Assembly (NCBI GenBank): GCA_017558145.1
Contig: JAFYWF010000116.1
Location: 4,415-68,414 of the forward strand
Origin: Lachnospiraceae bacterium
GTDB lineage: Bacteria > Bacillota > Clostridia > Lachnospirales > Lachnospiraceae
Direction of reading: 5' to 3'
Length of the DNA stretch: 64,000 nt
The position numbers and the translations under genes were made by a program. Below are positions 3,594 through 54,717 of the stretch, in pieces (the stretch's first letter is position 1; each line of letters opens with the position of its first letter). Under the pieces are notes generated by a model. It searched no databases, was not told the origin of the DNA, and worked only from the letters and a program-made list of their open reading frames with translations.

Positions 3594-5111
3594 CTATTTG
3601 TATTCAATAAGTATGTCTTCGGGTGGATTGCCTTTTAATCGTTCCGCTTTGGCTTTTTCCAATCGTTGCTGCTTCTGTGCCTGCTTTGTTGCTTTTTCCA
3701 GTTCGGTCATCATTTCCTCTTCAATCTGTCGAACCTCACAAGCAAACCGCCAACATTCTGCAATATCGGTAAAAATAGCCTCGTTCCAAAATCTTGTAAT
3801 ATCCCACCTATCGCCTTTATCTTCATTATAAACAGTATTCGATACATTTTGCATTGCTCTCGGCAAGGTATGACCTGCACTTTCATACACTTGGAAAAAA
3901 GAAGCAGGAGCAATAATACTCTTATCATCCTTTTCAATTCCGTGTAATAGCAAAGTAATGTATGTATGTCTTCCGTCGTGTATTCTGCCATAAGGTAATT
4001 CTTCCTTTTTGGCTTTCACTCGGCATTTATTGAGATAATTATAAATCTCTTTCCACTTGCGAGATACTTTTCCAGTGTGGCATACATAATTTTGCAATAA
4101 ATTGATTTCCCACTGTAAAACAAAGGCTTCGGGTGCTACTGGTCTGCCCAGTATAGCCTCCTGCCATTCCTTATATATCTTTAATGTGGTATAGCCTGCG
4201 TTATGCAGTTCAATCTCTCGAACCTTTTCACGCTTTGGCAATTTCACGGTGTCTTTCGTTACCAACTGCACACGGTTATGACAAATGGTAACTCTTTTAG
4301 TTTCCCAATTTATATCTTTCCACATCAAGCCACACAATTCCCCTCGTCTAAGTCCTTGTGTCATAGACATAACAACAAGATACAGAAAACTCGGGTCTTC
4401 CATTGTGGTGGCTTCATAAATCAATTCATTTAATTGCTTGTAATCAAGTGCCGAGGCTTTATATTCCTTTTTCGGTGCAGAGATTTCAGCACCCTCAACA
4501 ACATTTTCACTTACACCATATCTTACTTTATCTTTCAGCATATACGCCCAAATCTGCTTTAAGTGAGTTTTATATTTCTCGATAGATTTCCTAGAAATTC
4601 CCTGCTTTTCTTCAAATTCAAAATATGCTTCAATCTGTGCGGTCTGTATTGTCTTTACAAAAGTGGTACGCTCACCATTAAAGAACCGTTTGAAATGGTC
4701 TGTCTGTATGCGCAATTGTTCAACATAACTATCTTTGATTTTTCCCTTTTTGGCTTGCTTTCGTTTCAATTCAAGAAATTCATCCGCTACATCAACCAAA
4801 CGAATGCCCTCATTTTTGAAAACTACCTTTTTCTCCTTGGCTTCTGCCTTTTGTACTTCTATTTGATGAAGCCACTTTCTTGCTTCTGCCAATGTCTTAA
4901 AGGTCTTTCTTCGTTTGTCTTGCTTTTTTACAAATTTCTTTAATTCTTCGTCATAAATTTCCACCCTGCCAAAATCGGCAGTAGCCTCATAGGAAAACTT
5001 CTTTCCGTCTTTCAGTTTCCGCCTTATGCCCTTTTCAACTGGTTCATAAGTGATTGCTTCTTTCTTCTTTGGTGCTTCGCTTTCATCAAAATTAAATACT
5101 AATTCTTCCAT
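3594..5111 (-). CDS. Tyrosine site-specific recombinase/integrase (phage integrase family), 505 aa
   Basis: GLRRGELCGLMWKDI (catalytic R box), HDGRHTYITLLL (HxxR box) and AGH...VY near the C-terminus. The N-terminal SAM-like/arm-binding region is long. Confidence 0.85.
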   Translation of the reverse strand: MEELVFNFDESEAPKKKEAITYEPVEKGIRRKLKDGKKFSYEATADFGRVEIYDEELKKFVKKQDKRRKTFKTLAEARKWLHQIEVQKAEAKEKKVVFKNEGIRLVDVADEFLELKRKQAKKGKIKDSYVEQLRIQTDHFKRFFNGERTTFVKTIQTAQIEAYFEFEEKQGISRKSIEKYKTHLKQIWAYMLKDKVRYGVSENVVEGAEISAPKKEYKASALDYKQLNELIYEATTMEDPSFLYLVVMSMTQGLRRGELCGLMWKDINWETKRVTICHNRVQLVTKDTVKLPKREKVREIELHNAGYTTLKIYKEWQEAILGRPVAPEAFVLQWEINLLQNYVCHTGKVSRKWKEIYNYLNKCRVKAKKEELPYGRIHDGRHTYITLLLHGIEKDDKSIIAPASFFQVYESAGHTLPRAMQNVSNTVYNEDKGDRWDITRFWNEAIFTDIAECWRFACEVRQIEEEMMTELEKATKQAQKQQRLEKAKAERLKGNPPEDILIEYK

Positions 5112-5144
5112 AGCGTTCTCCTTTACATCGTGAATTTCAGCCTA

Positions 5145-5182
5145 TGGTAATATTTTTGGTAATATTTTATCATATATTACCA
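5145..5182. repeat. TGGTAATAT repeats next to the integrase start (candidate integrase arm/core binding sites at the element end)
   Basis: A perfect tandem tggtaatatttt x2 (5145-5156, 5157-5168), then an inverted copy atattacca (5174-5182). It lies between the integrase start (5111) and the response-regulator stop (5242). Confidence 0.5.
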
Positions 5183-10578: not shown

Positions 10579-10726
10579 ATCAATTCTTTTTATTTTTAAA
10601 ATACCTTTCTTTTTCATGTAATTTAATATATTGTTAACAGTTTTTTGCACTTTTCATGTTTTTATTTTCTTAAAATTCTAATAATATGATATAATTAAAT
10701 TCGTATTTTCAGTGGGGGTCTATTAC

Positions 10727-11335
10727 ATGGGACATAAATTTTATGACATTAAAGAAGAAGCACCAATCGTTTTATCTATTCATGCCAATGAAAAACATAT
10801 GGATTTGGGTGCTGTTGTAAAGAAGCATTTAAGCCAAAATCTTACATTAATCTCCCTTAATTATAACGGGACTAAACGTTTGGTTTTTGATAATGTCAAA
10901 ATAGATGCACTTCATTGTCCCGAAGACGCTGTTCCCATTTTATGGCATAACGTCAAGATTATAAATCATAAAGATGCATACTTATTACAGACTAATTCCG
11001 ATGGTACCAGAAGTAATCGTAGAAACTCTTATCGCGTACCTATTGCAACTTTGGGTTGGTTAACACAGATAGGAAAACCTCCACGACAGGTTATGATTAA
11101 AGATGTTAGTATGACCGGTTTTGCCATTACAGATCGTAAAAAAGAATTGCATTTATCAGCCGGTGACAGAGTATCCCTTGCTTTTGATGATTTAATTTTT
11201 CAAATAAAATTGGAAGGTAAAGTAGTTCGCATTGAAACACATGACCAATATATTATTTATGGTTTTGTAATTCTCAATATATGTAACGATTTACCTGCCT
11301 ATATAAATTTAAAACAACGAAAAGTTAGAAGGTAA
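10727..11335 (+). CDS. PilZ-domain (c-di-GMP receptor) protein, YcgR/MotI-like size
   Basis: RRNSYRV (RxxxR) and DVSMTGF (DxSxxG) motifs with the right spacing, ~200 aa. ATG at 10727 follows GGGGG; the track start at 10712 is GTG. Confidence 0.7.
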   Translation: MGHKFYDIKEEAPIVLSIHANEKHMDLGAVVKKHLSQNLTLISLNYNGTKRLVFDNVKIDALHCPEDAVPILWHNVKIINHKDAYLLQTNSDGTRSNRRNSYRVPIATLGWLTQIGKPPRQVMIKDVSMTGFAITDRKKELHLSAGDRVSLAFDDLIFQIKLEGKVVRIETHDQYIIYGFVILNICNDLPAYINLKQRKVRR

Positions 11336-18513: not shown

Positions 18514-19521
18514 CTATAAATTATTGATTTGTTCTTGGAATTGTTCTATACTTCCTGCTTCAATCGCAATTCTATGGAAGGATACTAAGACATTATCATC
18601 TTTCTCTTCGCTAATTCGTTCTGCAATATATTTTGGTAGTACGCCAAATTTTTCACATACTTCAAAAACCATAGCTTTTAGAGTTTCTGTCATTTGTGTA
18701 TCCTTTTTCTGCAGCTCGGCATCCAGGCTCTGCAGCTCAGCATCCTTACTCTGCAGCTCGGCATCCAAACTCTGCAGCTCAGCATTTAAACCCTGCAATT
18801 TTGAGTCTTTCTTCTGTAATTCATCAATCATATTCTTTAATTCTTCATCTTTTGCTTTTACCAGCTTATCGACAGACAGATAATGCATATATCTCGCCTC
18901 CACATCCCGATCTTTTTTTAAGATCTTAATTCGATTATGAATTTCTTTTAATTTTTCATTTGTGTTTTGTGCCACATATTCATCGGTAGAATTATTCAAA
19001 TAACCTAAAAAATCTACTAAAATTTTAGGAACTTCTTGCGTATTCTTACCTTTTGTGCTCAAAAAAATTCTTTTTGCACCATCATTTAAATGAATTTTTC
19101 TTTCCTCGCATTGCATTGTAAAAGTATATCGATATAATTCCTCATCAAAAGGATCAAAATTACAAATAAAAATAACATAAACCGGTTTTAAACTCTTATA
19201 ATCTTCACCTTTTTTCAAATTCCCAATATCAATTTGGGCTTGATAAAATCGACTTCTAAGAGGTAAATTATGCTCATTCTTGTTTTGCATTTCCAAATTA
19301 TAAGAAAGTTTGGTTACAGAATCTTTTGCATATACATCCAATCGAATATATTTTAATTCTGAGTTATACTTTTTTGTATACTCGACTTTTATATCCAACT
19401 CACCAATCTTTTCTTCAATGATACATTCCAACACCAATCGACATGTAACAGGATCCTCCAATGCCGCCGGAAAAAGAAACTCATCACTTAAATTAAGTTG
19501 CTGAATATTACTATTACTCAT
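18514..19521 (-). CDS. Rpn-family recombination-promoting nuclease / PD-(D/E)XK 'putative transposase', copy 1
   Basis: The N-terminal half (...IRLDVYAKDSVTKLSYNLEMQN...PLRSRFYQAQ...PVYVIFICNF) fits the PD-(D/E)XK transposase-like family. The C-terminal region is a coiled coil with heptad tandem repeats. Confidence 0.7.
   Translation of the reverse strand: MSNSNIQQLNLSDEFLFPAALEDPVTCRLVLECIIEEKIGELDIKVEYTKKYNSELKYIRLDVYAKDSVTKLSYNLEMQNKNEHNLPLRSRFYQAQIDIGNLKKGEDYKSLKPVYVIFICNFDPFDEELYRYTFTMQCEERKIHLNDGAKRIFLSTKGKNTQEVPKILVDFLGYLNNSTDEYVAQNTNEKLKEIHNRIKILKKDRDVEARYMHYLSVDKLVKAKDEELKNMIDELQKKDSKLQGLNAELQSLDAELQSKDAELQSLDAELQKKDTQMTETLKAMVFEVCEKFGVLPKYIAERISEEKDDNVLVSFHRIAIEAGSIEQFQEQINNL
18709..18798. 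repeat. 21-bp tandem repeat (4 full copies plus a partial one) inside the Rpn copy-1 coding region
   Basis: ctgcagctcRgcatccNNNct units at 18709, 18730, 18751 and 18772, with a partial copy at 18793. They encode (L/K)DAELQS heptads (LNAELQSLDAELQSKDAELQSLDAELQKKD). Confidence 0.9.
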
Positions 19522-23259: not shown

Positions 23260-24339
23260 TCATATCGTTGTTTTCACTTTATATTTGTGTCGCAATGTTT
23301 TCATTGTCCAATCATCAAAACTTACAATTCCATCATTTTGTAATCTACCAAGAACAATTCCCGGATCTCTTTCTATTTGATTCGCAAACCGTTGTATTGA
23401 TTGCAAATTAAAATTTCTCTCATTTATATATTCTTCATATTCTTCCGGTGGAATTAAATTATCTTCTGCATACCTATTTGCTGCTTCTTCCTGTTCTCCG
23501 TCCTCTCTTTCAAAAGAAATACCATAATCTCCATTTATTATATGACCAATTTCATGAAACAGAGTAAACCAGAAAGAATCTGCATTTAGTCTTCTATCAT
23601 TTACCATTAGCATAATATTATCGCCAATTTTTTTTGTTGCTCCGTTTGTTTTTGAACCTGATATGTTTGGCAATATAACAAATACAACCCCTGCTTCTAA
23701 AAATGCTTTGTAAATCAAAGGATAAAAATTATCATGATTTCGGGTCAACGTCAATGCATACTTTACGGCCTCTTCAAACTTCCTTTTATTAAATTTAGGT
23801 GCTTCTGTTTTCAGCACCTTATTTATTGCAATTTGGACCATAACGTTTGCTTTTACAATGCTTCCCTCTGTTATATCTTTGATTGAACTCCTAAAACTAA
23901 CAGCCATATCTCGCTTTGTAAATACTGATAAAGTTGCAACATTAAGAAACTCCCTAACACACTTTATCTGTTCATCTTTTTTTCTAGGCAAATCCGGCAA
24001 ACCAAAATTCTCTCTAAAATACTTATAATTTAAATATTCAAATACATTTCTTTCTTCAATTAATTCCTCTTCTGATTTAAACATTGCAATTAAAGTATCA
24101 TATGAATTCTGTATATTTAACCAGTAAGTAACACTTGTTCCCATCATTCTGGATAATCTTAATGCCATATCTATTGACAGACTTTGCTCTCCTCTTATCA
24201 ACAAACTTAAGTTTTTAGGTGTTGTATCAAGCCTTTTAGCAAAATCCTCCTGAGTCAATCCGCTTTCATCAACAACTTCTTTTATATAATATCCCGGGTG
24301 AAACGCAATCGTATCATTAAATTCTATATAATTACTCAT
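23260..24339 (-). CDS. HigA-type HTH antitoxin fused to an ImmA/IrrE (HEXXH) metallopeptidase domain
   Basis: HPGYYIKEVVDESGLTQEDFAKRLDTTPKNLSLLIRGEQSLSIDMALRLSRMMGTSVTYWLNIQ (HigA/VapI HTH), and FTLFHEIGHIINGD (ImmA/IrrE zinc motif). Confidence 0.75.
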   Translation of the reverse strand: MSNYIEFNDTIAFHPGYYIKEVVDESGLTQEDFAKRLDTTPKNLSLLIRGEQSLSIDMALRLSRMMGTSVTYWLNIQNSYDTLIAMFKSEEELIEERNVFEYLNYKYFRENFGLPDLPRKKDEQIKCVREFLNVATLSVFTKRDMAVSFRSSIKDITEGSIVKANVMVQIAINKVLKTEAPKFNKRKFEEAVKYALTLTRNHDNFYPLIYKAFLEAGVVFVILPNISGSKTNGATKKIGDNIMLMVNDRRLNADSFWFTLFHEIGHIINGDYGISFEREDGEQEEAANRYAEDNLIPPEEYEEYINERNFNLQSIQRFANQIERDPGIVLGRLQNDGIVSFDDWTMKTLRHKYKVKTTI

Positions 24340-24703
24340 AATGTTTGCTCACCTCCGTAATCTCTACTATCTTAACTATTCCTGAAATTTGATCAATGTT
24401 ACATGGCTCATATGGATTCTTATTTTCATCTAAAGGTTGCATAATAATTCGCCAAGGATCTTTTCTTGATTTAACATCAATAGCAAAATAACCTTCCAAA
24501 TCTCTTCCATTTTTATTCTTTAATTTATGAAAATGAAACATTGGTTGCACAATAATATCTTTTATACTATCTGCACTTTTTAATGCATTAATACGAGCCA
24601 GCAAACTTCTTGCTAAAAGTTCATTTCCATCAAATAATCTCTTGGCTGCTTTCATATTTGTGCATTGTGTCTCTGTTTTTTCTGATGTGTATTCAAGCTC
24701 CAA
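24332..24703 (-). CDS. HigB/RelE-superfamily toxin-like protein (TTG start), overlapping the downstream antitoxin by 8 nt
   Basis: The order is toxin first. The pattern ...LLARINALKSADSIKDI...FHKLKNKNGRDLEGYFAIDVKSRKDPWRIIM resembles HigB-like killer proteins (L..a....d....LkG...g.ysi.i...wRi.f). GAGG lies upstream of the TTG. Confidence 0.55.
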   Translation of the reverse strand: MELEYTSEKTETQCTNMKAAKRLFDGNELLARSLLARINALKSADSIKDIIVQPMFHFHKLKNKNGRDLEGYFAIDVKSRKDPWRIIMQPLDENKNPYEPCNIDQISGIVKIVEITEVSKHYE

Positions 24704-35402: not shown

Positions 35403-36530
35403 TTACTTACCTAAATACTCTTTTTCAATTATTTTCACTTGATCGCGCAGATTATATCCTGCATTAACAAGCTTCTCTGGAGTTTTCTCTCTCTTATTTT
35501 CATCTAAGCTGTATTCACTATATAGTGACATAATCTTCTCTTTCCATTTACATTGTTCCAAGGGCAAAAATGAAACATTATCACATATCTTAACTTCTTC
35601 TGTAATCTCTGAACTCGCAATACAACATACACCCGATGCTTGTGCTTCTATCATTGATAATGGTAATCCTTCAAATCGCGATGGCAAACAAAAAATATCC
35701 ATAGCAGAATACCAATTATAAATATCATCTCTATGTCCCAAAAACAAAACATCATTTTCTAATTTAAGTTCTTTAACCTTTCTCTTGACTTCTGGTAATA
35801 ATTCTCCATCTCCCAAAAGTACCAATTTTATATTGTCTACTTCTTTAGTAAGTTCATAAAACACATTTATTAAAAAATCATGGTTTTTTTGATAAACGAA
35901 TCTTCCAATGTGTCCTATAACAAAATAATCTTCCATTTCATTTGCTCTTCTATATTCTTTGCGTACTTCAGAATTAAAAGCAAATTTATCCAATTCAATA
36001 GCATTAGGCATTACTTTTATTTTCTTTTTATCTATCTGTTCTCCAAACAAAAATTCCCCGGCTTTTTTAGAGCATGCCCAATAATCTGTTGCCATTTTTT
36101 CAGTAAAATTACGTTTTGTTTCCTCATGCAATTTTATTTCCAAATCTCTTTTTTTACTATCCAGTGTATCAATACCAGCATTATGTGCATGTACAATTAT
36201 TTTTTTTACTCCTTTTTCTTTACAGATTTGTTCTACTAAGAAACTCTTCCACTGTTTTGTGTGCAAATGAACTATATCGTATCTTTCATCTAGAATTTTT
36301 TCAAATTCATATCTAAACTGTTCCTTATTATCTTCAGCATAACAAGATATATAATGAATTTTGCTACCTGTTTGTATAATTTCATTTTCAAAATCAATTT
36401 TTTTACTCATAGTTGCAAAATCACAATGGAAACAATCTTTATCCATAAATTTCCAGTTATTTAGTGCATAATGCGTAATTCCCCCGTTTGAATTAGCTAT
36501 CGGAAATTGTAAAATTTTTATTTTATTCAT
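35403..36530 (-). CDS. GT4 (glycosyl transferase group 1) glycosyltransferase
   Basis: ORF 35403..36548 with FCLPSRFEGLPLSMIEAQASGVCCIAS (the E-x7-E region). The start is uncertain. ATG 36548 lies inside a leader hairpin. ATG 36530 (MNKIKILQFP) follows the U-tract but has no clear SD. Confidence 0.8.
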   Translation of the reverse strand: MNKIKILQFPIANSNGGITHYALNNWKFMDKDCFHCDFATMSKKIDFENEIIQTGSKIHYISCYAEDNKEQFRYEFEKILDERYDIVHLHTKQWKSFLVEQICKEKGVKKIIVHAHNAGIDTLDSKKRDLEIKLHEETKRNFTEKMATDYWACSKKAGEFLFGEQIDKKKIKVMPNAIELDKFAFNSEVRKEYRRANEMEDYFVIGHIGRFVYQKNHDFLINVFYELTKEVDNIKLVLLGDGELLPEVKRKVKELKLENDVLFLGHRDDIYNWYSAMDIFCLPSRFEGLPLSMIEAQASGVCCIASSEITEEVKICDNVSFLPLEQCKWKEKIMSLYSEYSLDENKREKTPEKLVNAGYNLRDQVKIIEKEYLGK

Positions 36531-36646
36531 AAAACATCGAAAAGGCATCGAAACCGAAGCCTTTTTTCCCCTTTCAACAATATTAAATCACTTCCTTGTG
36601 ACAACTTATCTCAAAGTTTTGCTTCCTTGCATCTATTCTACTTTTT
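36528..36646 (-). ncRNA. Conserved 5' leader, copy L1 (twin GGA-loop hairpins plus a terminator-like hairpin)
   Basis: In RNA sense: UGC-AAGGAA-GCA (rc 36620-36631), UCAC-AAGGAA-GUGA (rc 36588-36601), and GGCUUCG-GUUU-CGAUGCC followed by UUUU (rc 36540-36561). It is homologous block-by-block to 41455-41618. Confidence 0.5.
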
Positions 36647-36674
36647 ATATCGGAAAGTTTTTATTAATTCTTTA
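36647..36674 (-). promoter_or_regulatory. Sigma-D/sigma-28-type promoter (TAAA-N17-CCGATAT), copy L1
   Basis: Minus strand: TAAA (rc 36671-36674), 17-nt spacer, CCGATAT (rc 36647-36653). It lies just downstream of a terminator. Confidence 0.6.
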
Positions 36675-36704
36675 CCCTCTATCAATATTCACAAAACCAA
36701 CAAT

Positions 36705-36726
36705 AAGGTGCCTTTTTTGGCACCTT
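36705..36726 (-). terminator. Rho-independent terminator after the TagF-like gene
   Basis: aaggtgcc (36705-36712), loop tttttt, ggcacctt (36719-36726). The minus-strand downstream sequence is auuguugguuuug. Confidence 0.6.
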
Positions 36727-36740
36727 ACTCGTTCTTCTAC

Positions 36741-39921: not shown

Positions 39922-41454
39922 TTACAGATTTTCTATCCGTACCTCTCTATCATTTCTTATTTTGTCCAAAATCTCTATTCTTCTGACATATAAGTCTTTT
40001 AATGAATTATAAGTTTCTTTATACAATTCATACATATATATGTATTTACGGTGATTTTCCAAGTTTGGCTTTATAATCATTCTAATTAATGCAAATTTAT
40101 TAGCTGCTTCTTTCATATTCTGATAAACACCCTGACCTGCCAATACCATCATTGCTGCACCTGATGCTGTAGTTTCGAATTCTGCCAATACCATAACATC
40201 TCTTCCCAAAACATCGGCTTTAATTTGAGATATCAGGTTTATTCTCGCCAATCCCCCTGATAAACGTACAGATTCTATGTCCACTCCTGTTTCCTTTATT
40301 GCATCAATAATATCCAAGTCAATAAAGCCTGTACTTTCAAAAACGGCTCTTGTCATATCTTTACGTGTATGCATTCTTTCCAAGCCAAAGAAAACACCTC
40401 TGGCATTATTATCCCATACCGGTGTTCTCTCTCCCAATAAATATGGTAAGAAAATTAGACCTTTGGCTCCTATTTCAGATTCATTTGCATCTTTTTCCAT
40501 GATTTCATATGGATATTGTTCTCCCTGATAATAACATTGCTTTACCCATTCTATCAATCCTCCCCCTAAATTATTGGATCCTCCAACTATATTGGCATCT
40601 TCCTGATAGAATGGAACATTATATATCTTATTACTATTAACTAAACCTTTTTTCTTGCTTAAAGCTCTAAAAACAGTTACTGTGCCGGATACATCACTAG
40701 CTTCTCCTTCTTCTGATACACCACTGCCTATAAATGAACATATTGCATCATACGAAGTTACAACGACTTTAATATCTTGATTTGAATTTATTTTCTCCGC
40801 TGTATTCCGATTAATCTTCCCAATACAAACTCCTGTATCAGTTACTTCCGGTAACTTATTTACAGATATTCCTAATTTTTTTAGAAAAACTTCAGGATAC
40901 ATCTTTTTAGCCAAATCATAATGATACTTTGTTGCATTTAAATAATCTGTAACACATTCTCCGCAAAGTTTATAGATCAAATAATCATTAGGTGTCATAA
41001 AATAACGTGTTTTTTCAAACATTTCCGGTAAATTTCTTTTAACCCATAATATTTTAGGTAACATAAGACTTACAGACATATCTAATCCGGTATTCTTTTT
41101 AACTTCTTCAAATTCTTTCATTTCTGAAATCATTTGAACTTCTTTTTCTGCACGCTTATCTGAAACCATAAACGCTTTTCCTAACGGATTTCCATTAGAA
41201 TCAACACATACCAAACAAGATGCAGATGTTGTAACTGTTATATATTCTATCTTGACATTTCCGGCATCTTTTAATGCTTTTCTCATTACGATTTCAGCCT
41301 TTTCCCACCATTCCGCAGGATCCTGCTCAACCCTTTTATCATTTATTGCTGTATTTATTGCTATAGCTGCACTTCCGAGTTTTAAACCATTCTGATTAAA
41401 AATAATACATCGTATACTTTTTAATCCCATATTAATAACCATGACATTATTCAT
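39922..41454 (-). CDS. FGGY-family carbohydrate/polyol kinase
   Basis: ORF 39922..41472, whose track start is TTG. ATG at 41454 follows AAAAGGA. VMVINMGLKSIRCIIFNQNG...QDPAEWW, and a C-terminal GGLARINLISQIKADVLG. Confidence 0.8.
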   Translation of the reverse strand: MNNVMVINMGLKSIRCIIFNQNGLKLGSAAIAINTAINDKRVEQDPAEWWEKAEIVMRKALKDAGNVKIEYITVTTSASCLVCVDSNGNPLGKAFMVSDKRAEKEVQMISEMKEFEEVKKNTGLDMSVSLMLPKILWVKRNLPEMFEKTRYFMTPNDYLIYKLCGECVTDYLNATKYHYDLAKKMYPEVFLKKLGISVNKLPEVTDTGVCIGKINRNTAEKINSNQDIKVVVTSYDAICSFIGSGVSEEGEASDVSGTVTVFRALSKKKGLVNSNKIYNVPFYQEDANIVGGSNNLGGGLIEWVKQCYYQGEQYPYEIMEKDANESEIGAKGLIFLPYLLGERTPVWDNNARGVFFGLERMHTRKDMTRAVFESTGFIDLDIIDAIKETGVDIESVRLSGGLARINLISQIKADVLGRDVMVLAEFETTASGAAMMVLAGQGVYQNMKEAANKFALIRMIIKPNLENHRKYIYMYELYKETYNSLKDLYVRRIEILDKIRNDREVRIENL

Positions 41455-41618
41455 TGTTAATTTCCTTTTCAATTATAATCAGTCTCTTTTCAAAATTCTA
41501 CTTTTGTAAAAGTAAAAAGACATCGAAAATCGATGCCTTATAAATCATACTAATATTATATCACTTCCTGTGATACTCTTATACGAGTTTTGCTTCCCTG
41601 CATCTTATTCTGATAATA
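41455..41618 (-). ncRNA. Conserved 5' leader, copy L2 (twin GGA-loop hairpins plus an intrinsic-terminator-like hairpin)
   Basis: In RNA sense: UGC-AGGGAA-GCA (rc 41591-41602), AUCAC-AGGAA-GUGAU (rc 41560-41574), and GGCAUCGA-UUU-UCGAUGUC (rc 41519-41537) followed by UUUUUACUUUU (rc 41507-41518). The SD AAAAGGA and the ATG at 41454 follow. Confidence 0.5.
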
Positions 41619-41645
41619 ATATCGGAAATTTTGCGAATTAGCTTA
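41619..41645 (-). promoter_or_regulatory. Sigma-D/sigma-28-type promoter (TAAG-N16-CCGATAT), copy L2
   Basis: Minus strand: TAAG (rc 41642-41645), 16-nt spacer, CCGATAT (rc 41619-41625). Confidence 0.6.
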
Positions 41646-41665
41646 ACCTTTTTGGTAATATTCCT

Positions 41666-46566: not shown

Positions 46567-46594
46567 TAAAGTTTTATCGTTTTCTTTCCGATAT
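46567..46594 (+). promoter_or_regulatory. Sigma-D/sigma-28-type promoter (TAAA-N17-CCGATAT) for the plus-strand glycan operon
   Basis: TAAA (46567-46570), 17-nt spacer, CCGATAT (46588-46594), 34 nt upstream of the ATG at 46629. Confidence 0.55.
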
Positions 46595-46628
46595 ATTTAA
46601 AAATGTAAGAAAGAAAAAGTATGTATTT

Positions 46629-47660
46629 ATGGCAAAAGTGAGTGTGATTATTCCCTGCTTCAATGCACAGTTTTATATAGACAGATGCCTTACCTCAGTT
46701 ACTTCCCAATCCATCGGAATAGATTCCTTAGAAATCATATGTGTTGATGATGCTTCTACGGATAATACCTGGGAAAAACTGCAGCAATGGGAACAGCGAT
46801 ATCCCAATCAGATTATGATTCTTCATTTTGATACCAATTCCAGACAAGGAACTGCCCGTAATGTAGCATTACAATATGCCACTTCTCCTTGGATAAGCTT
46901 CGTGGATTCCGATGACTGGATTGAGCCTGATTATTACCAAAAGCTACTATATTGTGGAGAACAGACAGCTTCTGATATCGTAATCTGTAAGACTATACGG
47001 GATTCTTCTTTAGAATTATCATTTTTAGATAATACTAAAACAGGTGAACCGAATCGTTTTATGGTGATAGACTCTTTGGAAAAACGCAAACTATTCTTAG
47101 TGCTTCGCAGCATGGATTCTCTTGCTTGTGCAAAGATTGTTCGTAAAGATTTTCTGTTAGAAAATCAGATTTTTTTTCCGGAATACCTTACCTACGAAGA
47201 TACCTATTGGGGCTCTTTGCTTCATCTGTATACAAACAGGGTGTATTTTTTAGAAGAAACTCTTTATCATTATTATATTAATGAACATTCTTCTGTTTTA
47301 CAGTCTAACTCGGAACATCATTTGGATCTTCTTACGGTACAGATGCGGTTATGGAACGAATGGGAAGAACGAGGCTTTCTAGAAAATTTCAGAGAAGAAT
47401 TAGAATATGATTTTCTTCATTCCTGTTATCTTCGCTTTTTGAAGGTTCTGGTTTACCGCTACCAAACACCCCCTTTATCACTGTTTCTTTTATTACAGCA
47501 ATTGATTCAGAAACGAATTCCGGATTTTTTAAATAACTCTTATTTACAACAAATAGAGCAACCGGATTTTTATAAAATATTATTTCAAGCAATAACATTA
47601 CCCATGAATAAGGAATCGTTTATGGAATTTACTACATCTATCCAAAGAATTGGAATGTAG
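46629..47660 (+). CDS. GT2 glycosyltransferase (paralog of 51317..52360)
   Basis: VSVIIPCFNAQFYIDRCLTSVTSQSIGIDSLEIICVDDASTDNT...SFVDSDDW. Confidence 0.85.
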   Translation: MAKVSVIIPCFNAQFYIDRCLTSVTSQSIGIDSLEIICVDDASTDNTWEKLQQWEQRYPNQIMILHFDTNSRQGTARNVALQYATSPWISFVDSDDWIEPDYYQKLLYCGEQTASDIVICKTIRDSSLELSFLDNTKTGEPNRFMVIDSLEKRKLFLVLRSMDSLACAKIVRKDFLLENQIFFPEYLTYEDTYWGSLLHLYTNRVYFLEETLYHYYINEHSSVLQSNSEHHLDLLTVQMRLWNEWEERGFLENFREELEYDFLHSCYLRFLKVLVYRYQTPPLSLFLLLQQLIQKRIPDFLNNSYLQQIEQPDFYKILFQAITLPMNKESFMEFTTSIQRIGM

Positions 47661-52634: not shown

Positions 52635-53495
52635 TTAGCCAAGTAATGCCAATACACCCTGATTAGACTGGTTAGCCTGAGCCAACATAGACTGTCCTGC
52701 CTGAGCAAGAATGTTGTTGTTAGAGAATCTAACCATTTCAGCTGCCATATCTGTATCACGAATCTGGCTTTCTGCTGCTGTTGTATTTTCTACAACGTTG
52801 TCTAAGTTTCTAATTGTGTGTTCAAGACGATTCTGGATAGCACCGAGTTCAGAACGCTGTGTAGAAACTGTTTCAAGCGCTTGCTTAACATAATTGTTAA
52901 GGCTGGAGAATTTACTTGTTGTAAATACTGTTGTAGAAGCTGTAATGCTTGCCTGTGTATAGAATGTAGAAATAGAAGAATAGTAAGATGTAGATAAACT
53001 ACTACAACTCATAGAATCAATAGTAATCTTAATATACTGTCCTGTTTCTGCACCAACCTGAAGACCGATATTAGTGAATTTACCATCTAATAAGCTCTTT
53101 TCGTTGAAAGTTGTTGTAGATTTAACTCTGTCGATTTCGCTCATTAACTGCTGAACTTCCATAGCGATGTAGTTACGGTCTGCTGTTGCAAGAGTTCCGT
53201 TTTCACCTTTAACTGCTAATTCGTTCATACGCTGTAACATATCATGTACTTCAGTTAAAGCACCTTCTGCTGTCTGTACACAAGAGATACCGTCAGATGC
53301 GTTTGCAGAAGCCTGTGTAAGACCTCTAATCTGTCTTCTCATTTTTTCAGAAATAGCTAATCCAGCTGCGTCATCTGCTGCACGGTTAATTTTGTAACCG
53401 GAAGATAATTTTTCTGTGGATTTTGCCTGTGCACCTGTTGTGATGTTAAGCATTCTCTGAGAATTCATTGCTGTAAGATTGTGTTGTACTACCAT
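52635..53495 (-). CDS. fliC: Flagellin (short, 286 aa; D0/D1 core with a minimal Ser/Thr/Tyr-rich central segment)
   Basis: N-terminus MVVQHNLTAMNSQRMLNITTGAQAKSTEKLSSGYKINRAADDAAGLAISEKMRRQIRGLTQA. C-terminus LGAIQNRLEHTIRNLDNVVENTTAAESQIRDTDMAAEMVRFSNNNILAQAGQSMLAQANQ. It has a strong SD (GGAGG). Confidence 0.95.
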   Translation of the reverse strand: MVVQHNLTAMNSQRMLNITTGAQAKSTEKLSSGYKINRAADDAAGLAISEKMRRQIRGLTQASANASDGISCVQTAEGALTEVHDMLQRMNELAVKGENGTLATADRNYIAMEVQQLMSEIDRVKSTTTFNEKSLLDGKFTNIGLQVGAETGQYIKITIDSMSCSSLSTSYYSSISTFYTQASITASTTVFTTSKFSSLNNYVKQALETVSTQRSELGAIQNRLEHTIRNLDNVVENTTAAESQIRDTDMAAEMVRFSNNNILAQAGQSMLAQANQSNQGVLALLG

Positions 53496-53650
53496 AAATT
53501 TACCTCCTTGTATTACTGGACAACTCCTTTTGTCTCAGTTAAAAATTATTTAAATAGTTTTTAATTTATATTAACTACAAGTCAAAAGCTTTAAGTCGGG
53601 CCCTGACGAAAGGCCTATGACTTGTAGTTAGTATCACCTTTGTATATTTT
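53496..53650 (-). ncRNA. Flagellin 5' UTR with CsrA-type sites and a GC-rich palindromic insert
   Basis: In RNA sense: a 10-bp perfect-stem hairpin CUACAAGUCA...UGACUUGUAG (53575-53627), then ACAA-AAGGAG-UUGU with GGA in the loop (rc 53520-53533), and 8 nt later ACAAGGAGGUA overlapping the SD (rc 53501-53511). Confidence 0.55.
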
Positions 53651-53676
53651 ATATCGGAAGGTTTTTTTATTACTTA
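53651..53676 (-). promoter_or_regulatory. Sigma-D/sigma-28-type promoter of the flagellin gene (TAAG-N15-CCGATAT)
   Basis: Minus strand: TAAG (rc 53673-53676), 15-nt spacer, CCGATAT (rc 53651-53657). The -35 context GGTTAAG is the same as in copy L2. Confidence 0.7.
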
Positions 53677-53796
53677 ACCCCTTTTTTTTAATTTTTTAAT
53701 AAATTTTTATTCGGCCTCATTTTTCAAATTAAATGCAACCCCTACTTCATCCAAACTAGAAGTTACTGTTTTATTAGCAAACTTATTTCATCCAAT

Positions 53797-54717
53797 TCAA
53801 TCTATATGATACAATACTCTATCTTCTTCTGGTATCATCAAAGCCTCCATTGCTTTTTCCAATGTAAGATTCATACTTTTCATAAGATTTTCCAGATTTT
53901 CCTTGATTGCCTCTTGTCTTCCTTCTTGCCTTCCACTTTCCTTATGATCATTCCATGCTTTACACATATCAAATCTCTCCCCTTCTTCTGTTTTTACTTT
54001 ATATTTGTTAATGTTTATATTAATACCTAAAACTCCAAAAATAGCTCTCATAGATTCTTTATCCAGCAAATAACCATTCATGTATACACTTATTATCTCA
54101 TTCATTTTGTTTTCGTCTTTTGAATTTAATAATAATTCAAATATAAAGCGATTTTCTGTTTTAAATTGAGAAAAATCTTTATAATCATGATAGTCAAAAA
54201 GATTTAGTCTGTAATTTGTTACAAATGGTTGCAACCTTTCATCCATCTCCAATAACTCATATAACGATCGTGCTCCATCCCAAGCTTCATTTTTTCCTAA
54301 ATATAAGATTAATGTGATTATTGGTTGAAATTTTTCATTTTTTCTCATTTGACTTAAAAATTCATTCTTAGTAAATTTATATCTAGCATTAATCCATTTC
54401 CTATAAGAATGTTTTTGCTGCTTTAGATAGCCAACCGCTTCTTCCAGCATGACTCTTAACACCATTCTGTAATCTACATAAGATTGATTTTCTAAAATAC
54501 AAATTGAAATTTTCTGTCCTTTCCACCTATAAACCTTGTCTCTTATCACCTTTATAGCTTCTTCATTTTTTTCATGATGCACCAGTTGAGAATCTAATTC
54601 TTCCAATTCCTCTTCCCTGATAATTTGTTCGCCATGAAACATAACTCCATTAATCATATCCGCAAAACGTCTTTTATCATCAAAATAGTCGCTTTGCCAC
54701 AAATCTTTTTTTCCCAA
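53797..54717 (-). CDS. Rpn-family recombination-promoting nuclease / putative transposase (YhgA-like), copy 2; TTG start
   Basis: DYFDDKRRFADMINGVMFHGEQII..., ISICILENQSYVDYRMVLRVM, and a C-terminal GRQEGRQEA repeat followed by a helix. These are typical of this family. Confidence 0.7.
   Translation of the reverse strand: MGKKDLWQSDYFDDKRRFADMINGVMFHGEQIIREEELEELDSQLVHHEKNEEAIKVIRDKVYRWKGQKISICILENQSYVDYRMVLRVMLEEAVGYLKQQKHSYRKWINARYKFTKNEFLSQMRKNEKFQPIITLILYLGKNEAWDGARSLYELLEMDERLQPFVTNYRLNLFDYHDYKDFSQFKTENRFIFELLLNSKDENKMNEIISVYMNGYLLDKESMRAIFGVLGINININKYKVKTEEGERFDMCKAWNDHKESGRQEGRQEAIKENLENLMKSMNLTLEKAMEALMIPEEDRVLYHID

Follow-up and report, generated by a model that had tools for sequence, protein, structure and literature searches.

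We analysed a window of 64,000 nucleotides (nt) from an uncultured Lachnospiraceae bacterium of gut type (contig JAFYWF010000116.1), in which two leader elements, L1 and L2, precede two operons of a flagellin-glycosylation island. In both, the sequence contains a sigma-28 (SigD)-type promoter, two small hairpins that present GGA in the loop and a further hairpin with a U tract. Taken together with its conservation, this layout suggests that L1 and L2 may be self-contained promoter-leader cassettes, placed before two flagellin-glycan operons and acting as CsrA-responsive attenuators tied to the FliW–CsrA–flagellin checkpoint, a reading to which we give a probability of about 0.4. In many bacteria flagellin has to be glycosylated before export, and the timing of glycan synthesis relative to that of flagellin is largely unknown. 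The chief established target of CsrA in Firmicutes is the mRNA of flagellin. Should the leaders bind CsrA, the same checkpoint would also gate the sugar-modification operons, and would do so through an intrinsic terminator, a mechanism undescribed for CsrA. The cassette probably ties the synthesis of the sugar coat to flagellum assembly. The flagellins of motile gut Lachnospiraceae (Roseburia, Eubacterium) are pro-inflammatory (PMC3720852). For L1 and L2 we infer from the sequence that CsrA binds, where the transcripts end and in which direction control runs, and the case is circumstantial.

Anatomy and conservation of the L1 and L2 cassettes

Promoters of the SigD type had been claimed in the initial annotation, and we agree: TAAA-N17-CCGATAT in L1 and TTAA-N17-CCGATAT in L2 fit the sigma-28 consensus of Lachnospiraceae (TAAA-N16-17-MCGATAa, with TAAA-N15-CCGATAT as the general form; PMC3720852), and the -10 element of the flagellin gene is alike. 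The window holds seven TCCGATAT sites against 1.9 expected, four of them intergenic and facing genes, namely those of L1, L2, the flagellin gene (53651-53658) and an operon encoding a family 2 glycosyltransferase (GT2) and LicD (46587-46594, plus strand). Transcription from the sigma-28 promoter of the cassettes would start a leader RNA of ~105 nt. The promoter of the GT2/LicD operon (46587-46631, plus strand) is followed by a ~35-nt unstructured leader with no GGA hairpin and is kept in the closest relative among the loci fetched for comparison (L019:1915-1985, minus strand); not every sigma-28 glycan operon has the hairpin leader.

The two GGA-loop hairpins, which we call HP1 and HP2, and the last hairpin fold as described previously (energies in Table 1), and the gap between HP1 and HP2 (17 nt in L1, 16 nt in L2) agrees with the 16-18 nt given for it; the two GGAs themselves stand 31 nt apart in L1 and 29 nt apart in L2. 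The consensus of CsrA ligands obtained by systematic ligand evolution through exponential enrichment (SELEX) is RUACARGGAUGU, in which ACA and GGA are invariant and GU nearly so; the ligands carry GGA in a hairpin loop on a stem mostly of <=4 bp, and one CsrA dimer bridges sites 10-63 nt apart (PMC7652899). Both of our hairpins place GGA in the loop, HP1 on a 3-bp stem (AAGGAA/AGGGAA) and HP2 on a 5-bp stem (AAGGAA/AGGAA). HP2 also has the flanking consensus (C-ACA-A-GGA-A-GU-G in L1, ACA-GGA-U-GU and ACA-G-GGA-A-G in the relatives L106 and L022 introduced below) and is the best predicted CsrA-type site in L1, HP1 fitting only in part (GCA..GGA..GC). The suggestion that the twin hairpins follow the recognition mode of CsrA dimers is thus borne out as far as the ACA, GGA and GU of HP2 and a spacing inside the 10-63 nt range are concerned. 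However, the mechanism of hag that had been invoked alongside does not transfer directly, because neither GGA hairpin overlaps a Shine-Dalgarno (SD) sequence: HP1 and HP2 lie at least 60 nt upstream of the start codons, and the SD-like regions (AAAGGGGA in L1, AAAAGGAAA in L2) hold only further GGA motifs that are unstructured.

The weight of the evidence rests on conservation and not on hairpin statistics for single leaders, since a pair of GGA-loop hairpins in one leader exceeds chance only weakly (P=0.12 for L1, 0.014 for L2). Of the 19-mer GATGCARGGAAGCAAAACT the window has exactly two copies, where 0.04 would be expected. When L1 is aligned with L2, three shared blocks are identical at 58 of 64 positions (91%), whereas the linkers agree at 13 of 37 (35%), which is about the chance level for AT-rich sequence; block 1 (alignment columns 3-28, window 36614-36639, reaching 6 nt into the middle hairpin HPm) is identical at 24 of 26. 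Because of this contrast between blocks and linkers, L1 and L2 appear to have diverged long ago with the blocks held constant under selection, and not to be merely a recent copy. HPm, which the initial annotation overlooked, lies between the two GGA hairpins and shows a compensatory change, from U-A in L1 to C-G in L2 and in L106 (CUC/GAG).

Also missed at first was the intrinsic-terminator-like nature of the third shared element. A GC-rich stem-loop followed by a U tract stands between promoter and first gene, in an imperfect form in L1. In L2 the stem has 10 bp, is followed by UUUACUUUU and was detected by the terminator scan; a simple scan of this kind skips the L1 hairpin because of a U-U mismatch. 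With a 1-nt offset, the arms and loop common to L1 and L2 read AAGGCWUCGR-UUU(U)-CGAUGYCUUUU. Between L2 and L106 all ten pairs of the terminator are kept, with one double change and three wobble-compatible single changes; the pair closing the loop is A-U in L2 and G-C in L106, a compensatory difference, and the 5' arm AAGGCAUCG is unchanged in L106 and better conserved than the 3' arm. A conserved terminator suggests attenuation, and its presence makes the L1/L2 module a putative attenuator or small-RNA cassette.

In the region 36528-36575 (minus strand), the family 4 glycosyltransferase (GT4) gene that follows L1 has no SD adjacent to its ATG at 36530, and AAAGGGGA is the sole purine-rich stretch that could serve as its ribosome-binding site. 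The AAAGGGG of AAAGGGGA lies 5' of the 26-nt hairpin; once the hairpin had folded, ~11 nt would separate AAAGGGG from the ATG.

Relatives of the cassette and unrelated leaders of the same layout

The initial annotation had asked for a covariance model built from L1 and L2, and had taken a lack of hairpin conservation in related genomes as grounds for refutation. The model scored a homologue in another species (L106:89-151) at 54.5 bits (E=1.8e-10), which removes that objection. This locus, reached by walking through homologues of the FGGY kinase (77% identical in L106), has its cassette at the same junction as L2, following a glycerophosphodiester phosphodiesterase (GDPD) gene and leading into an aldolase-kinase operon. 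It reads TTAA-N17-CCGATAC, AGAAUAAGAUGCAGGGAAGCA, CUC/GAG, AUCAC-AGGAU-GUGAU and AAGGCAUCGG-UUU-CUGGUGCCUUUUU, and the AGGAU loop of its HP2 is nearer the SELEX consensus. A doubtful relative (L022:10720-10810; 10.2 bits) lies downstream of a glycerophosphotransferase gene, like L1, and retains CCGATAT, GAUGC..GGAAGC, CAC-AGGGAAG-GUG and AAGGCAU. Across all four, GAUGC..GGAAGC is invariant and HP2 keeps CACA(N)GGA(N)G, with variation confined to the N positions. Column-wise counting of pairs on the four-way alignment was dropped, as the positions that MAFFT gives to indels of 1 nt within HPm, HP2 and the terminator are inconsistent, and the pairs were checked by hand. In L022:10683-12800 the L1-like leader is followed by gene remnants and an opposite-strand IS110-family transposase; this leader is probably decaying. 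The homologues of the GT4 gene behind L1 (~60% identity) are all in mid-operon, with gaps of 20-74 nt and no leader.

That the leader belongs to no described leader or riboswitch class, as previously stated, is upheld by Rfam 15, none of whose families matches the window or 11 related loci at the gathering threshold. Relaxing the search to E<=10 brought nothing, cyclic di-GMP and Csr/Rsm families included, and the best sub-threshold matches were to unrelated families at 20-22 bits. We also considered a leader peptide starting at the AUG inside HP1, where L1, L2, L106 and L022 have open reading frames of 8, 15, 21 and 4 codons, respectively. It was rejected: the AUG lacks an SD and follows the predicted 5' end by ~8 nt, and the frames are of unequal length and are disrupted by indels of 1 nt.

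Leaders of the same layout but unrelated sequence were found when 76 metagenome loci encoding the kinase were fetched and scanned for sigma-28 promoters. About 10 distinct unrelated leaders, from other Lachnospiraceae, have the promoter, one to three GGA-loop hairpins and a strong intrinsic terminator ahead of an aldolase-kinase operon, and their SD often contains GGA. The largest group, class B (L025, L028, L029-31, L034/35, L047, L090, L092 and L098), is marked by an invariant hairpin GUGCGA-AUGGAG-UCGC (GUGCGAAUGGAGUCGC), a 5' hairpin in which the stem covaries while the GGA stays fixed (UAUAAU-UAGGA-AUUAUA, UAUAAA-UUGGA-UUUAUA, AAUUAAA-UGGA-UUUAAUU), a covarying helix AUAUAUC/GGUGUAU whose inner stems vary, and a conserved terminator (AAGCCCUGCAUUUGUAUGCAGGGCUUU; compensatory variant in L025) that keeps the sequence of its loop and 5' arm. 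Class B is an undescribed leader family ahead of aldolase-FGGY kinase operons in Lachnospiraceae from human-gut and other metagenomes. The other leaders of this layout are mutually unrelated (Table 1); one example has UGCGA-AAGGAA-UCGCG and then GGAGUCCCUGCAC..GUGCAGGGAUUCUUU, and its terminator 5' arm includes GGA. Neither class B nor the others have a match in Rfam. In 13 leaders, a set chosen partly by eye, which tells against the figure, there are 25 GGA-loop hairpins, whereas dinucleotide shuffles lead one to expect 7.4 and none of 500 exceeded 14. The family of L1, L2, L106 and perhaps L022 sits within a wider, undescribed architectural class of Lachnospiraceae flagellin-glycan loci, and the recurrence of the layout at many loci of gut Lachnospiraceae whose sequences are unrelated suggests a general design.

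A predicted CsrA-responsive attenuator and its alternatives

In the attenuator that we propose, free CsrA would clamp HP1 and HP2, and the nucleotides of the clamped HP1 (GAUGC or GAAGC) could not pair with GCAUC or GCUUC in the terminator 5' arm. The terminator would then form, and transcription would halt before the first gene, leaving the operon off. Once FliW captures CsrA, the weak 3-bp HP1 would open and pair with the terminator 5' arm as an antiterminator, allowing RNA polymerase to read through into the glycan genes; the downstream SD regions containing GGA could add translational control. HP1 would need a protein to persist because it is weak (-1.9 kcal/mol), and conservation of the 5' arm, seen in L106 and in class B, is what one would expect if this arm had two pairing partners. 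The alternative pairing was looked for by cutting transcripts at the terminator loop, folding them and reading the lowest-energy fold. In these folds the partner of the terminator 5' arm is HP1 sequence in L1, L2 and L022 and a GGA hairpin in L025, L029, L098 and L068. The pairing is GAAGC/GCUUC in L1, GAUGC/GCAUC in L2 and L106, 7 bp long in L022, and 5-8 bp expected in L025, L029, L098 and L068. Expected pairs number 5-8, against ~2 for shuffled arms, and at least as many pairs as observed arise in 29, 5, 1, 2, 11, 20 and 7 of 200 shuffles, in the order of the seven leaders named above.

A number of observations weigh against such an attenuator. The antiterminator has only 5 bp, compared with the 10 bp of the terminator, and L1 draws on a different HP1 5-mer (GAAGC) than L2 and L106 (GAUGC), with a weak shuffle control (29/200). 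In the truncated-transcript folds of L077 and L027 the 5' arm does not pair with a GGA hairpin. The proposed pairing offers no covariation to test it, and neither do HP1 and HP2, which are invariant. HP1, 3 bp elsewhere, does not form a hairpin in L022. The last hairpin of L1 has the U-U mismatch and an interrupted tract (UUUUCGAUGUUUU) and ends 9 nt before the ATG; it might serve translation instead of termination. Moreover, CsrA is known to affect Rho-dependent, not intrinsic, termination (PMC7652899). Neither csrA nor fliW was found in the window or in any fetched locus, and the window holds no flagellar structural genes (Pfam; tblastn for CsrA, which gave no matches in the window or in any locus with B. 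subtilis and E. coli CsrA queries). In cultured motile Lachnospiraceae csrA lies within an flgM-csrA cluster (PMC3720852), and we infer the presence of csrA and fliW in the source genome.

The sequence family, moreover, is tiny, comprising L1, L2, L106 and the doubtful L022. The covariance model that scored L106 so well scored only L1 and L2 across 85 sources, with no further member in these 829 kb of related loci. A scan of 185,579 species genomes with the pattern GGAAGCAAAACN{8,24}CACN{1,2}GGAAGTG gave nine matches, a chance number, all in unrelated taxa or coding DNA, and a scan of metagenome DNA for promoter plus HP1 (CCGATAW..AGRAATA..GATGCNNGGAAGC) gave none. Finally, the closest fetched relative, L019 (kinase 88% identical, same gene order), is without the L2 cassette. 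This weakens the original argument that two copies speak for function, although the block/linker contrast and the L106 homologue make that case more strongly. L019 has 42 nt (L019:5958-6001) where the window (41455-41665) has 211 nt, an indel of ~180 nt that spans the region from the GDPD stop codon to just past the U tract of the terminator and retains the native ribosome-binding region. Because the indel has these bounds, the unit of gain or loss is apparently promoter, leader and terminator together, behaving as a portable cassette.

The attenuator can be stated more broadly: in sigma-28 leader attenuators of Lachnospiraceae, a CsrA-locked anti-antiterminator would govern intrinsic termination, and the ~105-nt terminated RNAs would titrate CsrA. 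We regard this broader form as rather doubtful. If true, CsrA would here be seen for the first time to control intrinsic termination, and the FliW–CsrA flagellin checkpoint for the first time to reach flagellin glycosylation, on a portable promoter-leader-terminator cassette insertable before operons.

Other explanations share much of this evidence. CsrA might bind the twin hairpins without affecting termination, either protecting the 5' end from RNase or bridging to the GGA-containing SD, with the last hairpin being structural. Both sites lie no further than ~55 nt from the predicted 5' end, a long way from the SD, like those of flhDC; the L1 gene has no SD at its ATG, while AAAGGGGA, 5' of the hairpin and 24 nt past the GGA of HP2, has a hag-like spacing; GGA is found within the SD region of L2 as well as that of L106; and the L1 hairpin could place the upstream AAAGGGG beside the ATG. 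We nevertheless find this quite unlikely in view of the full terminator anatomy in L2, L106 and ~10 unrelated leaders, of the ~100 nt between HP2 and the SD in L2, which exceed the 63-nt limit, and of the conserved sequence of the terminator 5' arm and loop, which a purely structural role leaves unexplained. That the cassette is mainly a small-RNA gene, whose sigma-28-dependent ~105-nt product, with two GGA hairpins of high affinity, soaks up CsrA in trans with leaky read-through for the downstream genes, appears very unlikely. Each RNA would indeed consist of two CsrA-type hairpins and a terminator, two copies per locus would increase the dose, and the indel relative to L019 covers exactly promoter to terminator, with the native SD region of the next gene kept. 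However, all three clear cassettes are directly upstream of, and co-oriented with, an operon, the stretch from the terminator at 36702-36729 to the L1 gene shows no further promoter, and the layout recurs in leader positions only. In known sponges, besides, GGA sites are far more numerous, and RNA sponges are not known from FliW-type systems (PMC7652899).

The element could also be an attenuator or riboswitch-like structure that senses another RNA-binding protein or a glycan-pathway metabolite, with the GGAAG loops as recognition elements. The conserved motif does exceed GGA, since GGAAG is found in both loops of L1, L2 and L022, and class B is more structured (the invariant GUGCGAAUGGAGUCGC hairpin and the AUAUAUC/GGUGUAU helix) than CsrA sites require. 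The guanidine-II riboswitch likewise has twin small hairpins with identical loops. Yet the AAGGAA loops cannot pair mutually, hairpins of 3 to 5 bp are small for a ligand pocket, and no Rfam family matches even at E<=10; HP2, on the other hand, fits the CsrA consensus position by position, the L106 loop AGGAU even more closely, and both the flagellar promoter and the flagellin leader of the window point to CsrA. Such a sensor is therefore unlikely, if a serious candidate. Barely credible is the view that nothing beyond the promoter has a regulatory role and that L1 and L2 are a duplicated promoter fragment with incidental hairpins and GGA motifs. The hairpins are short, their single-sequence statistics are weak (P=0.12 for L1), the closest relative manages without L2 and the family is very small; but 91% block against 35% linker identity, the second-species homologue at 54.5 bits, the compensatory changes in HPm and the terminator, and the recurrent architecture in unrelated leaders all argue otherwise.

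Genomic setting and comparison with known systems

Positions 24-62 kb of the window form the flagellin-glycosylation island, in which genes for glycosyltransferases (GTs), sugar-nucleotide enzymes, LicD and glycerophosphotransferase surround the flagellin gene (Pfam). L1, L2 and the genes behind both lie on the minus strand. The L2 operon (to 36741) encodes FGGY kinase, an iron-containing alcohol dehydrogenase, a nucleotidyltransferase and a glycerophosphotransferase; because a strong terminator ends it, the L1 operon needs its own promoter. The genes of the latter, down to ~24844, run in the order GT4, GT, methyltransferase, oxidoreductase, DegT aminotransferase, acetyltransferase, GT and GT2, with others. 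The GT4 product (375 amino acids, aa) is identical (100%) to an NCBI "MAG: Lachnospiraceae bacterium" protein, and an ENA metagenome contig carries the L2-downstream gene. The N-termini of homologues fix the GT4 start codon at 36528-36530 and exclude an alternative one at 36548. Two PD-(D/E)XK/YhgA-type transposase-like genes flank parts of the island; inside it, a gene for a helix-turn-helix (HTH) and M78-peptidase protein adjoins that of a 123-aa protein, and a PilZ-domain protein gene lies upstream.

Table 1. Features of the window and of the fetched loci (locus labels precede their own coordinates; energies are for the predicted folds)
Feature	Position	Strand	Sequence and remarks
L1 cassette, whole	36528-36674	minus	
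L1 sigma-28 (SigD) -35 element	36671-36674	minus	TAAA; 17 nt upstream of CCGATAT
L1 sigma-28 (SigD) -10 element	36647-36653	minus	CCGATAT
L1 conserved 5' block	36620-36639	minus	AGAAUAGAUGCAAGGAAGCA (AGAAUA, then HP1)
L1 HP1	36620-36631	minus	UGC-AAGGAA-GCA; GGA at 36624-36626; -1.9 kcal/mol
L1 HPm	36603-36618	minus	AACUU-UGAGAU-AAGUU; -2.2 kcal/mol
L1 HP2	36587-36602	minus	GUCAC-AAGGAA-GUGAU; GGA at 36593-36595; -4.2 kcal/mol
L1 tail	36579-36585	minus	UAAUAUU; same in L2, not retained in L106
L1 SD-like region	36567-36574	minus	AAAGGGGA; has GGA 24 nt past the GGA of HP2; 5' of last hairpin
L1 last hairpin	36540-36565	minus	AAAAGGCUUCGGUUUCGAUGCCUUUU, AAAAGGC-U-UCG-GUUU-CGA-U-GCCUUUU; -11.6 kcal/mol, z=-3.4
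L1 terminator-like hairpin and U-rich stretch	36531-36565	minus	CGAUGUUUU
First gene of L1 operon, GT4 glycosyltransferase, ATG	36528-36530	minus	Pfam
Intrinsic terminator closing the upstream (L2) operon	36702-36729	minus	11 pairs, then GUUGGUUUUG; terminator scan
L2 cassette, whole	41508-41646	minus	
L2 sigma-28 promoter	41619-41646	minus	TTAA-N17-CCGATAT; TTAA 41643-41646, CCGATAT 41619-41625
L2 5' block	41591-41611	minus	AGAAUAAGAUGCAGGGAAGCA (AGAAUAA, then HP1)
L2 HP1	41591-41602	minus	UGC-AGGGAA-GCA; GGA at 41595-41597; -1.9 kcal/mol
L2 HPm	41575-41588	minus	ACUC-GUAUAA-GAGU; -4.1 kcal/mol, z=-5.2
L2 HP2	41560-41574	minus	AUCAC-AGGAA-GUGAU; GGA at 41566-41568; -6.8 kcal/mol, z=-6.9
L2 HP2 plus tail	41552-41574	minus	tail UAAUAUU
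L2 predicted intrinsic terminator	41508-41539 (hairpin 41517-41539)	minus	AAGGCAUCGA-UUU-UCGAUGUCUU, then UUUACUUUU; terminator scan; -11.5 kcal/mol, z=-6.2
L2 SD and ATG of FGGY kinase	41452-41467 (ATG 41452-41454)	minus	SD AAGGA, contains GGA
Flagellin leader	53496-53680	minus	sigma-28 promoter TTAA-N15-TCCGATAT
Flagellin gene	52635-53495	minus	
Class B leaders	L025:8778-8945; L028-L031 ~4950-5180; L034/L035 ~4900-5070; L090:4830-5030; L098:340-500; L047; L092		
Other mutually unrelated sigma-28 GGA-hairpin leaders	L077:310-480; L078:320-470; L068:4950-5130 (with L069); L027:5015-5150; L065:5665-5800		
Transposase-like, HTH/M78, 123-aa and PilZ genes (collectively)	18514-19521, 53797-54717, 23260-24703, 10712-11335		

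The flagellin leader of the window has a canonical CsrA-type pair of its own, a hairpin GACAA-AAGGAG-UUGUC (BS1) and ACAAGGAGG at the SD, 20 nt apart. It resembles the fliC leader of C. difficile, whose CsrA sites are TGACAAGGATGT (BS1) and CTAAGGAGGG (BS2) (PMC8523840), in this arrangement of BS1 and SD site. The leader also forms a long perfect 5' stem (CUAACUACAAGUC...GACUUGUAGUUAA). Another sigma-28 leader, at L022:3160-3290, contains a perfect match to the SELEX consensus core (ACAAGGAUGU) and ACAAGGAGGG at the SD; it precedes a gene for a 187-aa protein without a Pfam domain and may be another CsrA target.

Set against the hag BS1/BS2 sites of B. subtilis and fliC of C. difficile, L1 and L2 share the SigD promoter, a short ACA-N-GGA hairpin and a place in the flagellar regulon with its FliW–CsrA logic; they differ in that their predicted sites are upstream of a terminator-like hairpin and off the SD, and in that the target is a glycan operon, not flagellin. 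In E. coli flhDC, two 5'-proximal CsrA sites block RNase E (PMC7652899). These sites, too, are two in number, near the 5' end, far from the SD and in the flagellar regulon; flhDC, however, has no leader terminator, and CsrA activates there. The pgaA leader of E. coli, where CsrA remodels the RNA in favour of Rho-dependent termination (PMC7652899), is comparable in that CsrA sites would decide whether transcription continues by blocking an alternative pairing, and in that the operon concerns a polysaccharide, but termination in pgaA is Rho-dependent whereas that of L1 and L2 would be intrinsic, and control of CsrA is of the small-RNA type there and of the Firmicute FliW type here. Like CsrB, RsmY, RsmZ and the C. 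jejuni flaA leader, L1 and L2 would be short GGA-hairpin RNAs ending in an intrinsic terminator; unlike the Csr/Rsm sponges, they have only two hairpin sites, are always in leader position and match no Csr/Rsm family of Rfam. The PyrR (pyr) and TRAP (trp) attenuators of Bacillus work by a three-state logic of a protein-bound anti-antiterminator, an antiterminator that draws on its nucleotides and an intrinsic terminator. It is this logic that we predict for L1 and L2, with a different protein, a different recognition motif and an antiterminator of ~5 bp.

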